This document shows positions 601-61,500 of a stretch of 64,000 bases of DNA, in pieces. Location of the stretch: assembly GCF_030684315.1 (NCBI RefSeq), contig NC_081391.1:21412629-21476628 (forward strand), written 5' to 3'. The position numbers and the translations under genes are program-made. Position 1 is the stretch's first letter. Each line of letters opens with the position of its first letter. The stretch is from Stegostoma tigrinum. Taxonomy: Eukaryota. Under the pieces are notes generated by a model. The model saw only the letters and a list, made by a program, of their open reading frames with translations, did not search any database and was not told the DNA's origin.

Positions 601-2996
601 ATGGTTTCCCAAGTGTGTCAGAACTACCACAAGGACTGTGAGGATGCTGTTAACAAGCAGATCAACCTGGAGCTCTATTCCTCCTATGTTTACCTCTCCA
701 TGGTGAGCTTTGTGGAATTGAAGCCTGTGTGATAACAGTGTTGACCTGTTTGGGGTTTTTATGCTGGGTTAATGAATTAGCTGTATCATGTATTATTTGC
801 TGTGGCCCTTCCCCTGTTGCAATCTAGTGCAGGCCTTAACACTGACTCTCTGTTCAAAACCTGACCATTGTCTTCATGTCCAACTGCCTCCTGGATGTGG
901 ATGCCCAGCTTGCTGTCTCTGGACAATGTAACCCTTGGTGATTTTTCATCTAACTCTGGAGGGATGATGTGGTCTTTGTCAATAACTAAATTTTAAAATT
1001 GGTTGCATTCCTTTTCTCAACAAAAGCTTTCCCTGGTGGAAACTTTTCCTGACACAAATATACTCCTTTTTGTTTAAAACCTTGCCCCATTCACCAGACT
1101 GTCTTGTGCTCAAGATGTAAAGTTCCCTGAACTAAAAGAACAGCAGCTGCTGGACACTAAACACCAACGGAAAAGCTCTAAACATCTGGTTGAAAACCAA
1201 GCTCTGGGTCCACTGACCCTTTCTCAAGTGGCTTTGAGCTATGCAATGTGAGGAAAGAGGCACACTTTCACACGATGTAGGTGCTTTTTTTTTCTCTCTC
1301 TAACAAAGCAGTTAGAATTCTGTGGAGTGGATGGTAGGACACTGGGGTTATTCAGGTGGGTGATGGTGATAATGAGGCTGCTGACTGAGCTTTCTGGCTG
1401 TGTTCATGAACACATGTCCCTTCATTCAGTTGGACAGGGGCCTAACTGGTCTCCACCTCCTGAACCATAGTGTTTCTAACCTGCAGAGCAGGGATGTCTA
1501 ATGGCTATAGACAGCTGTCCCCTTCAGCAGGCACCATGCCACATGTACTGTCTCTCTTTCTCGCTCACACAGGCCAGGGATTGCATTTGCTTTTTGTCCT
1601 TGATTTCCAGAAAGCTGGTGAAATATCTGCACAAAGGCTGCTTTAGTATCTGTTGTTTGGGTTATAATCCATGGAAGGTGACTTCCTGCTTTGCCTGTTT
1701 TTTTACCACTTAAATGTGGAATCAAGATGGTGCCCAGGTTATTTCCTGAGTGAGGAGTGTCATTCACGAATTTCAGACAGTTTCCTTTTAACCTCTCTCC
1801 CTCCCTCCCTCCCTCCACAGTTCTCTTACTTTGACCGGGATGATGTTGCCCTGCATCACTTTGCTGAGTTCTTCAAGGAGCAGTCCCATGAGGAACGGGA
1901 ACACGCTGAGAAACTGATGGCATTCCAGAATAAACGTGGAGGTCGAGTCCTCCTGCAGGACATTAAGGTTGGATTCTGAAGCCTTCTGTTTGTGTAGCTC
2001 TTTGTGAGCAGCTACAATCGACTGGTATCTCCCTCTATTTAGCTTTAGCATTGAACAAATACTGTATGAAGGGGAGGTTGTTCTGCAAAATAGGCTTCCT
2101 TTAGGTGACAGGAAATAATCATCAATTGAGACTCACCAGAATAGTGAGTAGATATCAATGTGAATGACTCTCCTTTAGACAGACTGAGGGAACAAAAGCT
2201 GAGACAGGAAATTGTTGCAGTGTGGAAAGTAGCAGTGTCCAGCCTTTCAGAATCTAGAAGATGTTTCTAACACCACAATCGTGAAGCCTATTCTCTGCAT
2301 GTGAATTGAGAATCGACATGAACAGTAGAATGTGTTTAGAAAATTTCTTATTCCCTCAGTACAAAATCTAGTTGTCTTGAACAAATTCAAGTTTGTTTGT
2401 AGTACCTCCTACAATGATGAGGGATAACTAACCGATGTAGACTAATGATACAACTGCCTGCTGAACTCTGCTTTCTGTTCCCACTTCCTCCCTCCAGAAG
2501 CCAGAGCAGGATGAGTGGGGCAATGGTCTGGAGGCAATGCAGAGAGCTCTGCAGATGGAGAAGGATGTGAACCAGAGTCTGCTGGATCTGCACAAACTGG
2601 CCTCTGGCCACATGGACCCTCATGTGAGTTTGTAAACTGTATTCTCTCTTCCTTGGAAGAAAGTGATGTGTTTGTGCACGCTCTCTTGGTTTAAAAATCC
2701 AATTACCTTCTCCCAGCCTCCTACCGGCTGGTAAAACCTTTCAAAGGCATCACCTAAGTGGACCTCCACATGGTGGTGATGGTCGCGTCTGTCATGGGAA
2801 GTCACTTTCAGACACCTTTTTGATCCTCTGGATTAATTTTGTCTTCCAGCTGTGTGACTTCCTGGAGAGGCACTACTTGGATGAGCAAGTGAAGATGATC
2901 AAGAAGCTGGGAGATCACATCACCAACCTGAAGAGACTGGGAGCCCCTGACAATGGCATGGGAGAGTACCTGTTTGACAGGCTCACACTCAGCTGA
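601..2996 (+). CDS. Ferritin heavy/middle-type subunit, copy 1 (intact, 173 aa); exons 601-702, 1821-1967, 2498-2623, 2850-2996
   Basis: Spliced translation [91 protein letters not shown]...[18 protein letters not shown]...[10 protein letters not shown]. All introns GT-AG and phase 0, as in vertebrate ferritin genes. Confidence 0.95.
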
Positions 2997-3064
2997 GTGA
3001 GGTCAATAATGTGTCTGTTGTACATGGTGACATAATGCTAGTAACTTGGTTGTGCTCTGAGCAA

Positions 3065-58532: not shown

Positions 58533-61500
58533 ACAAGGACTGTGAAGATGCTGTTAACAATCAGATCAACCTGGAGCTCTATTCCTCTTATGTTTACCTC
58601 TCCATGGTGAGCCTTCTGACATTGAAGACCTGACCTCAAATTGAAGCCTGTGATATATTTGCATTGACTCTCTTAGGTTTATTTTCTTGCCTAGTTTCAT
58701 GATTTAGTTGTAGCATGTGTTTTGGTCTGTGGCCCTTCCCTGACTGAATCCCAGTGAAATGGTTCACACTGACTCTGTTGGAAACTTGAAGTTTGTCTTG
58801 TATTGCAACTGACTCCTGGGTGACAATGGCCACTTTGTTATCTCTGGACAATGTACTCCTTAGTGACTTTTCTCCTTCCTCTGAAGGGATGAGCTGATGT
58901 TGCTGATAAACCTATATTTTCCTTAAATTTGGTTACAATTTTCTTTTAAAGAGAAGATTTCCCTGGTGAATATTTCTATGCAAAATGTACTTGCACTCTT
59001 AAAACTTTGCCCCATTCACCAGGCTGCTCTGGTCTGAAATAGTTCTCTTCTAAAAGAAAAGCAACTGCTGGAAATTAGAAACAGCAACAAAAATAGCTGG
59101 AATAGCTTTACAGATCTGGCAGGATTTAGAGAAATCAGTTCATGTTTTGGGTCCAGTGACTCTTCCCCAAAAGTCCTCTGTCTATTCAGTAGGAAGATAG
59201 ACAAGTGTGGCATGTTTTCATACTCCAAATCTGAATTACAGAAAAAGAAACCAGTTAGAACTCAGTGCTGAGTCGATGGTAGGACAGAGTGGGGTTATTC
59301 AGGTGGGTGATGTTTGTAATGCTGGCGTTCACCATGATTCATGGCTCTGTCCATCCACGTGCTCTTTCATTCAGTGCTGCGTCCTTGATCGGCTGGTTGT
59401 GTGTCCTCTCTTTCTTCTATAATCCATGGGAGAAGACCTTCTGCCTGTCTATCATGTTCCAGTAATTAAATGTCCAGTTCTGGTTGCCATACTAACAAAA
59501 GGATGTGAATGCTTTGGAAGGGGGTGCAGAGGAGGTTCACCAGGATGTTGCCTGGTATGGAGGGTGTGAGCTACGAAGAAAGGTTGAGTAGATGAGCATT
59601 ATTTTCATTAGAAGGTGGCAGATTTGGGGGTGGGGTCCTGATTGAGCTCCTCAAATTCATGAGGGGTGTAGACAAGGTGGATAGCAAGAAGCTTTTTCCT
59701 TGAGTGGGGAACTCAATTACTAGGGGTCATGAGCTCAAAGTAAGAGCAGGGAAGATTGGGTGAGATTCCTTTCAGTGTGGAAACAGGCCCTTTAGCTCAG
59801 TGCACACTGGCCCTTGAAGCATCCCACCCAGACCCATTTCCCCTATAACCCCCATACCACTGAATGCTACAGGCAATTTATCATGTGGATATATTTGGAA
59901 AGCTCTTTACACAGGTTGGAGGGTGCCTGGCACACACTGCCTGTGGAGGTGGTAGACGCAGTCACACTAGTGTCTTAAGATCTATCTGGACAGGTACATG
60001 GATGGGCAGGGAGCAAAGGGATACAGCCCCTTTGAAAATAGATGACCGATTTGAGACCAGATGTCGCTCGGTGCAGTGTTGGAGGGTCAAAGCCTGCTCC
60101 TGTGCTCCAGCTCTTTTGTCATTAAATGTGGAATCAAGATGGTGACTGGGTTAGTTTCTGATTGAGGAGTGCCATTGAATTTCAGATACATTTCCCTTTC
60201 CTGCCTGTTTCTTCCCCCACAGTTCTCTTACTTTGACCGGGATGATGTTGCCCTGCGTCACTTTGCTGAGTTCTTCAAGGAGCAGTCCCATGAGGAGCGA
60301 GAACATGCTGAGAAGCTGATCATATTCCAGAATAAACGTGGAGGTCGTGTCCTTCTGCAGGACATCAAGGTTGGATTCAATTTTTTCAGCTCAATACACT
60401 GGACTGATATCTCAATATGATCAGGTTCAGGATTAGACAAATACTGTATGAATGGGAGGTTGCTCAGCACAATATGATTTCCTTCACTAAAAGGAAACAC
60501 TTTTGCACTTGTGATTGAACAACAGTTGGCAATTGTGATCATCCTTTATTCTGGATGGTGAGCACATATCGGTGTCTACCGTTGCTTTGGACAAGATGAG
60601 GTGTCAAAAGGGAAAACAGAAATCTTTCAGGTGTGGAAAGCATCAGTATGAAGCCTTTATACTTCAAGGATGTTTCTGATGCCTTGAGATCATTCTGATC
60701 ACAGCATAGCAGGATTTATTTAGAAATGTCCCCCTTCAAGAACAGTACCAAATACAGCATGTGTTTTGCCAAGGTCAAGTTGGCCTGTAGTACCTCCCCT
60801 ACAATGATGAGGGATGACTAACTGATCAGATGTAGACTAATGATACAACTGCCTGCTGAGCTGTGCTTTCTGTTCCTGCTTCCCTCCCTCCAGAAGCCAG
60901 AGCAGGATGAGTGGGGCAATGGTCTGGAGGTAATGCAGAGAGCTCTGCAGATGGAGAAGGATGTGAACCAGAGTCTGCTGGATCTGCACAAACTGGCCTC
61001 TGGCCACACGGACCCTCATGTGAGTGTGGTGTATTTAAATCTGGGTTTTTTGAATAAAAACAGGGATCAGACACTTGGTCCTTTTTGTTAGCCACAAGAT
61101 CTCCTTTGACATTGTGGAGGGTTTTCTTGGGTTATACCAAGATCCTCCTGTTTCTAAAACTGAGCACTTTCTCGAGTGTATTTGGCAATCTCCATGACAT
61201 CACTTCACTGTTCGGTCTCCCAAGCTGTATTTTGTTGGATTTAACCAGTTCCCCTCTTTGCTTTCTCCAGCTGTGTGACTTCCTGGAGAGGCACTACTTG
61301 GATGAGCAAGTGAAGATGATCAAGAAGCTGGGAGATCACATCACCAACCTGAAGAGACTGGGAGCCCCTGACAATGGCATGGGAGAGTACCTGTTTGACA
61401 GGCTCACACTCAGCTGAATGGGGTCAATATCTATATCTGTTGTACATGGTGACCTCATTCTACTAAATGACTAGTTGTGCTCTGAGCAAATTAAAATAGT

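Follow-up and report, generated by a model that had tools for sequence, protein, structure and literature searches.

A ten-gene slice of a shark ferritin array with homogenised exons, no detectable IRE and a probable ovarian role

The 64,000-nucleotide stretch of Stegostoma tigrinum DNA analysed here (the window) is probably a ten-gene slice of an ancient elasmobranch ferritin array that makes an iron-unregulated, dosage-amplified ferritin for the ovary or oocyte. BLASTN with the exons of copy 1 found ten sets of exons 2 to 4 but nine copies of exon 1; they lie on the plus strand throughout, between positions 601 and 61417, and TBLASTN with bullfrog M ferritin over the window returned the same ten copies and no eleventh. 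The exons measure 102/147/126/147 nt, every intron is in phase 0 with GT-AG borders, and the stop codons of neighbouring copies lie 3,844 to 8,076 nt apart; the initial annotation, which had proposed ten head-to-tail four-exon copies at about 4 to 8 kb, was thus correct on this point. Since introns are present, a retrocopy origin was rejected. The reading frame is intact in copies 1, 3, 5, 6 and 8, each encoding 173 aa, and the remaining five copies (2, 4, 7, 9 and 10) carry lesions that are all different, so that the proposed division into five intact and five differently disabled genes held copy by copy. Positions 1-600 match the regions upstream of copies 3, 5, 7 and 8 at 92 to 94%, and 61418-64000 match an inner spacer; therefore, the array exceeds the window at both ends, as had been supposed. 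The features are as follows.

336..600, plus strand: promoter and 5' UTR of copy 1, with CCAAT boxes at -262, -179 and -149 and TATAAATA at -77
601..2996, plus strand: copy 1, intact, 173 aa; exons 601-702, 1821-1967, 2498-2623 and 2850-2996
6907..8116, plus strand: copy 2, disabled; exons 2-4 alone, promoter and exon 1 missing, exon-2 acceptor CGG
12524..14787, plus strand: copy 3, intact; exons 12524-12625, 13593-13739, 14301-14426 and 14641-14787
19215..21624, plus strand: copy 4, disabled and most diverged; TGA at codon 76, 2 nt lost at the start of exon 4, CCAAT region of the promoter deleted
27319..29700, plus strand: copy 5, frame intact; Y25C, TATA box changed to TAGAAACA
33330..36260, plus strand: copy 6, intact; longer intron 1 (1,632 nt), 5' UTR about 19 nt shorter
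40577..42967, plus strand: copy 7, disabled chimera; TAA in exon 2, copy-5/9 type upstream and copy-2/6/10 type downstream, with the switch in exon 2
47385..49831, plus strand: copy 8, intact chimera; copy-1/3 type through the end of intron 2, intron 3 of copy-2/6/7/10 type, with the switch in or beside exon 3
50327..51288, minus strand: inverted, 5'-truncated, presumably Penelope-like piece, 92% match to 58503-57548
51284..53675, plus strand: copy 9, disabled; ATA for ATG, promoter replaced, one extra nt in exon 3 leading to a stop at codon 128
57346..61417, plus strand: copy 10, disabled; exon 1 split by a 1,143-nt insertion, exons 2-4 open
57390..58532, plus strand: the 1,143-nt insertion in exon 1 of copy 10; four extra bases, then telomeric hexamers, then a 5'-truncated, presumably Penelope-like element
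61418..64000, no strand: array spacer, 98.8% to 42968-45553 (the spacer after copy 7), passing the window end

The proteins of copies 1 and 3 match the zebra-shark RefSeq models P0138 and P0137, respectively, at 99.4% each. Bases 270-1700 of copy 1 were sought ahead of copy 2, in 2997-6906, and gave no match. Two of the lesions involve a retroelement that we take to be Penelope-like. The piece at 50327..51288 takes the place of copy 9's spacer and promoter and is joined at the start codon via a short microhomology. The insertion in copy 10 is flanked by a 16-nt target-site duplication with one mismatch (57374-57389 and 58533-58548) and carries 9.5 telomeric hexamers (57394-57450); its match to GIY-YIG (E of 0.0016, 19.1 bits) lies under the Pfam cut-off of 22.6. 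An Rfam search of this insertion for telomerase RNA gave no match, and 2 chance matches appeared at E up to 10.

The array grew by unequal crossing-over, which duplicated single genes as well as two-gene blocks: self-comparison paired 27319-33318 with 51284-57315 (95.6%), 33358-37427 with 58533-62567 (93.7%) and 6803-13450 with 41659-48312 (92.5%). Some crossovers were resolved within exons and produced the chimeric copies 7 and 8, and copies were killed by point lesions, deletions and retroelement insertions. Throughout, exons 3 and 4 stayed near-identical as the introns drifted apart. Copy 1 differs from copies 6, 7 and 10 at 0 of 147 positions in exon 4 and at 2 to 3 of 126 in exon 3, and its divergence from the same copies is 0.28 to 0.31 in intron 2, 0.60 to 0.61 in intron 3 and 0.35 downstream. 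In 20 pairs with unlike intron-3 type, exon 4 has 0 or 1 synonymous differences at about 29 sites, whereas exon 2 in the same comparison has as many as 10 at 30 sites; the corresponding binomial P of 0.009 (at most 1 difference at a rate of 0.2) was computed with 31 sites although the count was 29, and independence does not hold among the pairs. Part of the exon-4 identity may reflect synonymous-site constraint, since exon 4 is slow between species too: a contig from organism D differs from copy 1 at 3 positions over 2850-2986 (exon 4), at 5 in exon 2 and at 6 in exon 3. Among the 10 intact pairs, pN/pS is 0.12 to 0.32 in the 7 more distant and 0.51 to 0.68 in the 3 closest. The initial annotation had described one ferritin subtype amplified in tandem, with copies being born and lost, and this stands. 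Its birth-and-death model, however, is incomplete. Disabled copies are frequent and of varied age, as that model expects (five of ten, with different lesions), but the copies sort by lineage rather than across species, and synonymous divergence in exon 4 (0-1 of about 29) is unlike that of the introns (0.28-0.61). Because exons 3 and 4 are homogenised despite unlike introns and the copies group lineage-wise, concerted evolution appears to act alongside birth and death.

The amplification had been proposed to be lineage-specific, a view that the relatives of these genes do not support. In a quick tree of 162 rows, the window proteins and the array proteins from 12 elasmobranch species made up a single clade (139 of the 162 rows, support 99). 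Within this cluster-biased sample, array copies grouped by shark lineage with supports of 80 to 90, below the starred level; the tree omitted 96 of 252 proteins that were outside 165-200 aa, lacked the exon-4 motif or were unlabelled, all 4 Carcharodon rows among them. A 50-row quick tree separated an H clade (14 rows, support 96), comprising skate fth1a and chimaera, mammal, bird and teleost H chains, from the array clade (15 rows, support 100), which joins coelacanth, lamprey and the tetrapod M group in one polytomy. The 50-row tree had no FTL row, and neither tree had a Greenland-shark (Somniosus) sequence. Since three teleost proteins that NCBI calls "heavy polypeptide 1b" were placed within the H clade, the FTH1b label may not denote one orthology group. 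In many sharks the paralogues are crowded onto single contigs: among the matches listed, most lie on one or two long contigs per NCBI-annotated species, and shark ferritin clusters at 90% identity have 127, 138 and 69 members.

Exon 2 alone scores 43.1 bits to the ferritin family PF00210 (cut-off 24.5). P0138 matches ferritin structures, the best in the PDB being frog M ferritins (E of 3e-87 to bullfrog 1mfr), and each of the 21 highest-ranking rows is an M ferritin or a variant. In frog M ferritin, E23, E58, H61, E103 and Q137 form the ferroxidase site, E57 and E136 serve transit and D127 and E130 line the pore, according to the part of PMC10114856 consulted. All of these ferroxidase, transit and three-fold-pore residues are present in 6/6 full-length window translations examined (copies 1, 3, 5, 6, 7 and 8), and judging from this conservation the products would assemble as 24-mer cages and mineralise iron. 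Residue 140 is Met in 172 of 185 elasmobranch proteins with a readable motif (20 more unread) and in 0 of 25 such non-elasmobranch proteins (22 unread). Met140 could reduce ferroxidase activity; by itself it is no proof of activity loss, since H ferritins have Ala or Ser there.

The live copies have a predicted TATA/CCAAT promoter, a short putative 5' UTR and no detectable IRE. The 5' UTR of copy 1, about 47 nt, is an estimate from the TATA box with a predicted start site. Copy 5 may be weakly expressed, since it carries TAGAAACA instead of TATAAATA. Over the whole 64 kb, Rfam gave 0 matches at the gathering score, in a search that had no IRE-bearing gene as positive control, and at E up to 10 over 200-3400 none of 6 matches was an IRE. 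Of 8 promoter regions, with start sites estimated, none contained a CAGWGH loop whose stem formed more than 2 of 5 pairs.

At least one sample, the unlabelled sequencing run X5 (tissue unrecorded), contains spliced ferritin-family RNA. There, 42,470 of 714,730 contigs were placed on 1-4200, contigs being unable to rank expression. GT-AG joints were seen over intron 2 in 26 contigs and over intron 3 in 16, and exon-2 letters directly followed base 702 in 100 records, i.e., intron 1 had been spliced; this evidence is family-level, at 88% likeness, and rests on joints and exon-exon loose ends. Intron 1 lacked cover in X5, an observation given no weight on its own. The DNA-like runs X1 and X2 had 0 and 1 spliced contig, respectively, among the joints listed. 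X21 and X22, from the same study as X5, contained next to no matching words, although this does not prove absence; of the small shares from organisms B-G, X15 alone was used. In X2, contig depth summed to about 1,850 to 3,010 in exon bins and about 40 to 270 in most intron and flank bins, with a lower ratio in X1; the exon depth in X2 hints at many more copies, though it is not a copy number.

The array is already known, and as first described it is a rediscovery: the novelty suggested by the initial annotation was lost to two publications, both consulted in part. Sahm et al. (bioRxiv 10.1101/2024.09.09.611499) report 118 ferritin copies in one ovary-expressed Greenland-shark cluster that is common to the great white; their largest cluster has 104 FTL/118 FTH1 calls and ovary-specific expression, and the shark clusters are termed ancient, with an age of 250 million years or more. 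Yang et al. (PNAS 2026, PMC13214024) describe a shark-wide "FTH1b" expansion with 59 Greenland-shark copies, 55 in one tandem cluster and 4 in another; five of the 59 are 5'-truncated. Among 12 species compared, including Stegostoma tigrinum, sharks were generally higher in FTH1b copies; some copies were transcribed in fin and blood, and a ferroptosis/PUFA and longevity reading was preferred. The two papers, as far as their consulted parts go, read one shark ferritin expansion differently, as an ovary-specific cluster or in terms of ferroptosis and longevity. The ferritin section of the former does not discuss IRE, gene conversion or residue 140; the main text of the latter does not mention ovary, iron-responsive, concerted or gene conversion, its 2025 preprint does not mention ferritin, and ferritin is absent from the main text of the catshark genome paper. 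Beyond the texts searched, then, are the lack of an IRE, the exon homogenisation and chimeras, the lineage sorting and Met140; IRE, conversion and Met140 may be published in the bioRxiv supplements or in subscription papers, which lay outside the search. That search, again with subscription papers outside its scope, found no paper on ferritin in elasmobranch ovary or oocyte transcriptomes.

We infer that the window array and the published Greenland-shark clusters are the same; the window itself contains no flanking gene for a comparison of synteny. The high-output tissue proposed in the initial annotation is probably right in kind, the Greenland-shark cluster being ovary-specific in the consulted part of bioRxiv 2024.09.09.611499; for the zebra shark, the ovary would follow by extension. 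The array would act as a gene-dosage device, in which a large number of almost identical genes that escape translational repression by IRP would yield an abundant single 24-mer ferritin in the ovary or oocyte. This ferritin would stock and shield iron for large yolky eggs, and conversion would keep co-assembling subunits compatible. Schistosome yolk contains ferritin, as do the eggs of amphibians and snails, according to the consulted part of PMC1488847, where a reference title states that schistosome ferritin mRNA has no IRE. A wider proposal, which we hold tentatively and somewhat short of an even chance, is that sharks and rays own a non-H ferritin subfamily with Met140 and a lost IRE, whose dozens of genes were kept uniform for more than 250 million years by exon-confined conversion, like oocyte-type rRNA or histone arrays, as an egg iron store. 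If this is true, the longevity-linked "ferritin expansion" of the Greenland shark would be a trait of reproduction that sharks have in common.

An unlikely but serious alternative, already proposed for the Greenland shark, is that the array buffers iron throughout the body and guards PUFA-rich sharks against lipid peroxidation (ferroptosis) instead of provisioning eggs. It would account for the intact catalytic residues and for the 59 copies, part of them with transcripts in fin and blood, in the consulted part of PMC13214024; the same source, however, has raised copy number in sharks without long lives and few tissues sampled, and the consulted part of bioRxiv 2024.09.09.611499 has expression specific to the ovary. 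IRE loss would also be expected of a programmed high-output gene more than of an iron-responsive buffer, and together with the short 5' UTR, the homogenised exons and the shark-wide Met140 it favours a gene of the former kind.

Less likely still is plain birth and death with little selection on dosage, in which copy number drifts by unequal crossing-over aided by spacer repeats and exon identity results from purifying selection alone. Five dead copies in ten, the pN/pS of the closest pairs and the slow exon 4 between species all fit. What does not fit is that exon 4 shows 0 or 1 synonymous differences between copies of unlike intron type, that the chimeras are exon-anchored, that copies group by lineage and that a large array has persisted in different shark orders. 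Duplicated haplotypes or mis-joined reads, which the initial annotation had raised against itself, are highly improbable: one 2.6-kb spacer pair is 98.8% identical and no contig among those listed spans 1-4200, but introns differ by up to 30-60%, whole-unit identity is at most 95.6 to 96.5% by self-comparison, and every copy has its own lesions. Furthermore, same-species DNA-like runs cover 30 of 30 bins with exon depth far above intron depth (not a copy count; S1 may be the source sample), and the annotation of many shark assemblies includes tandem paralogues. An ovary or oocyte ferritin amplified for dosage remains the preferred reading.

Compared with bullfrog M ferritin (1mfr), the window copies keep E23, Y30, E57, E58, H61, E103, D127, E130, E136 and Q137, but they have Met for D140, Gln for H54 and Leu for H169, an additional Cys5 and a C-terminus 3 residues shorter. 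IRE-regulated vertebrate ferritin genes carry an IRE in the 5' UTR, whereas none was detected in the window copies. RefSeq models named "ferritin heavy/middle/higher/oocyte isoform-like" in Stegostoma, Chiloscyllium, Hemiscyllium, Rhincodon, Heterodontus, Heptranchias, Scyliorhinus, Cetorhinus and Pristiophorus belong to the same subfamily as the window copies; these automatic names are inconsistent, and some models of about 265 aa fuse exons of two copies. Copy counts from automatic annotation, moreover, mix live and dead genes, and half of the window copies are dead. The Greenland-shark and great white clusters are, like the window, large tandem ferritin gene clusters, mostly full-length there: more than 85% of the Greenland-shark genes are full-length (consulted part of bioRxiv 2024.09.09.611499), whereas five of the ten in the window are disabled. 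Greenland-shark copies are labelled FTH1 and FTL in the consulted text, whereas the window proteins fall outside the FTH1/H clade in a tree that had no FTL row. The shark FTH1b cluster resembles the window in being tandem, intron-bearing, multi-copy and common to sharks.

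A search of the window with the exons of copy 1, the leftmost of the ferritin genes, found exons 2 to 4 ten times and exon 1 nine times, always on the + strand, and TBLASTN with bullfrog M ferritin recovered the same ten copies and no additional one in the window. Copies 1, 3, 5, 6 and 8 (5/10) have an intact 173-aa frame with GT-AG splice sites; copies 2, 4, 7, 9 and 10 are disabled, each by a different lesion. Spacing between copies is 3,844 to 8,076 nt, and spacer sequence continues past both window ends. The initial annotation's account of ten tandem copies, five intact and five disabled, with spacers running off both ends, is accurate.

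Copy 1, disabled copies and mobile elements (window positions)
601-702, 1821-1967, 2498-2623 and 2850-2996, +: exons of copy 1, the query for the copy search
Copy 2, disabled: promoter and exon 1 absent; acceptor reads CGG
Copy 4, disabled: stop at codon 76; 2-nt loss; promoter deletion
Copy 7, disabled: TAA within exon 2
Copy 9, disabled: ATA for ATG; promoter replaced by an inverted retroelement piece; +1 frameshift
Copy 10, disabled: exon 1 interrupted by a 1,143-nt insertion
57374-58548: 5'-truncated Penelope-like insertion in exon 1 of copy 10, with a 16-nt target-site duplication
50327-51288, inverted: second piece of the same Penelope-like element, linking the spacer that follows copy 8 with the copy 9 start codon
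5081-6276 and 6280-6800: LINE-like remnants, presumably CR1-like, in spacers and intron 1 of copies 6 and 10

Self-comparison resolved the whole window into a mosaic of direct repeats in which two-gene blocks are duplicated: copies 5-6 pair with 9-10, and copy 2 plus the start of copy 3 pairs with copy 7 plus the start of copy 8. Copy 2 starts where copy-1 spacer meets intron 1 of the copy-6/10 type, a junction which suggests that crossover between LINE-like remnants removed the 5' half of this copy. At its 5' junction the insertion in copy 10 has four extra bases plus 9.5 telomeric hexamers, their G-rich strand continuous with the left flank, as though telomerase had lengthened the cleaved end while the element was inserting; Rfam gave no telomerase match there, and telomerase-made insertions at breaks are described for mammals in PMC2246262. 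The inverted piece before copy 9, with short microhomology at the join and several kilobases including the promoter replaced, marks a probable retroelement-linked deletion.

The intron type switches within exon 2 in copy 7 and in or next to exon 3 in copy 8; both switches are unequal crossovers resolved at the most similar stretches. Between copy 1 and copy 6, 7 or 10, exon 4 differs at 0/147 nt and exon 3 at 2 to 3 of 126, and divergence is ~0.3 in intron 2, ~0.6 in intron 3 and ~0.35 in the downstream flank. All 20 exon 4 pairs across intron-3 types show 0 or 1 synonymous differences at about 29 sites; exon 2 shows up to 10 at 30. Since one contig of a different species shows just 3 letter differences across exon 4, synonymous constraint may contribute to this identity. 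A quick tree of 162 rows, a sample biased by clusters, placed 139 rows (133 from the database and 6 from the window) in one clade (support 99), and groups followed lineage with supports of 80 to 90: 36 Pristiophorus, 18 Heptranchias, 3 Heterodontus and 9 carcharhiniform rows, and 66 carpet-shark-plus-window rows, one of them a long-branched Scyliorhinus row. No lineage group was resolved for 6 Cetorhinus rows. To judge from these comparisons, the coding exons evolve in concert on top of birth-and-death. Birth-and-death, the mode proposed initially, agrees with the varied dead copies and block duplications but not with homogenised exons and copies sorted by lineage.

Exon 2 as query matched 1,027 proteins, with sharks dominating the best 120, and copies 1 and 3 are each 99.4% identical to zebra-shark RefSeq models, which makes Stegostoma or a closely related carpet shark the probable source. 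Among the members listed for 10 clusters (up to 15 per cluster), many paralogues of a given species share one or two long contigs; this holds for Stegostoma, two Chiloscyllium species, Hemiscyllium and Rhincodon, and likewise for Heterodontus, Heptranchias, two Scyliorhinus species and Cetorhinus. Pristiophorus has many proteins in records without contig data. The array is a real, already known, shark-wide feature. Sahm et al. (bioRxiv 10.1101/2024.09.09.611499) report 155 FTL and 179 FTH1 calls, about 80% lying in three clusters that keep their synteny between Greenland and great white sharks, and Yang et al. (PMC13214024, referred to in PMC13701976) count 59 FTH1b genes, arranged as two tandem clusters, and find raised copy number among sharks at large, the zebra shark being one of the species compared. 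As far as these texts were covered, a large array had thus been described across sharks, and the novelty suggested initially falls. IRE loss, conversion and Met140 did not appear in the parts of either text covered, and four related terms had 0 hits in the main text of PMC13214024. Among the openly accessible papers listed, no further one on this array was found.

In a second quick tree (50 rows, no L chain included, relation to frog M left as unsettled branching), the array clade (support 100) stood apart both from the H chains, themselves a clade (support 96), and from another shark ferritin, the P0114 group, some members of which lie on contigs as long as the array's. P0114, P0254, P0257, P0259 and P0006 represent other ferritin subfamilies (Ser/Ala140 and Ile140 types) of several sharks, on contigs equally long. 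Three records on short contigs labelled bacterial (P0111, P0164 and P0294; Aeromonas, Salmonella, Yersinia) are 74 to 91% identical to a shark ferritin or clustered with shark proteins and are probably database contamination.

Three CCAAT boxes are common to 7/8 promoter regions and were lost in copy 4. The proximal box (449-460 and equivalents) reads CTGATTGGCYAS in 7/8, which we take to resemble the Y-box of Xenopus oocyte genes. TATAAATA lies 55 to 77 nt 5' of the ATG in 6/8 regions and TAGAAACA in 2/8, and the start site is an estimate that gives a 5' UTR of 25 to 47 nt. Vertebrate H and L ferritin mRNAs bear a 5' IRE; with this estimated start site and no positive control, neither Rfam across the window nor a loop-and-stem test of the eight promoter regions found an IRE.

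In sequencing run X5, which is of unrecorded library type and bears the same species label, 42,470 of 714,730 contigs match 1-4200 at 88% likeness, and 8,995 of these reach 99% or more; contig numbers give no expression level. Joints span introns 2 and 3, and exon 2 letters directly follow base 702; among those listed, the DNA-like runs X1 and X2 gave comparable joints in none and one contig, respectively. The X5 exon-exon joints show that transcripts of the ferritin family are made and spliced in this species. The X2 contig, of low depth, joins exon 2 to exon 3 (1965-2496) and may come from a processed ferritin copy at another genomic site. Eight X5 contigs skip exon 2 (701-2497, GT-AG ends), which keeps the frame because all introns are phase 0; phase 0 also accounts for RefSeq models of about 265 aa joining exons of two copies. 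A different ferritin C-terminus appears in X5 as a loose end at 2984.

The array is most likely a dosage array for ovary or oocyte ferritin. Many interchangeable genes would make one ferritin in bulk, outside IRP control, in ovary or oocyte, where it would build up an iron store for a large yolky egg and stop the stored iron from oxidising yolk lipid. Structure, turnover, homogenisation, residues, the missing IRE and splicing are observed; the window would in addition be orthologous to the Greenland-shark cluster, the tissue would be the same in this species and dosage would be under selection. One rival is an assembly artefact, and one spacer pair is 98.8% identical, the product of recent duplication or conversion. 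Whole units match at best at 95.6% (6.0 kb) and 96.5% (3.9 kb), and intron types differ by 0.28 to 0.31 in intron 2 and about 0.6 in intron 3, values not expected of duplicated haplotypes, which makes an artefact very unlikely. X1 and X2, two runs of one sample that is possibly the window's source, hold 0.66 to 0.67 of sampled words and covered 30/30 bins of 1-4200.

Drift plus purifying selection, a second rival, would leave the copy number itself largely neutral; pN/pS is 0.12 to 0.32 in seven of 10 intact pairs and 0.51 to 0.68 in the three closest. Body-wide buffering against ferroptosis is the other rival, and the largest Greenland-shark cluster is expressed ovary-specifically according to Sahm et al. 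(10.1101/2024.09.09.611499). The boldest reading, at somewhat less than an even chance, is that the array encodes an egg ferritin peculiar to elasmobranchs, lacking the IRE and altered at its ferroxidase site, whose copies stay uniform through exon-confined conversion.

Egg and yolk ferritins are known in amphibians, snails and schistosomes (PMC1488847). Among solved structures, frog M ferritins come closest to the array proteins. These keep the residues that the part of PMC10114856 covered gives for ferroxidase, transit and pore functions in frog M ferritin, except that they carry Met for D140, Gln for H54 and Leu for H169 (frog M numbering). Met140 is a signature, occurring in 172/185 readable elasmobranch rows vs 0/25 readable others.
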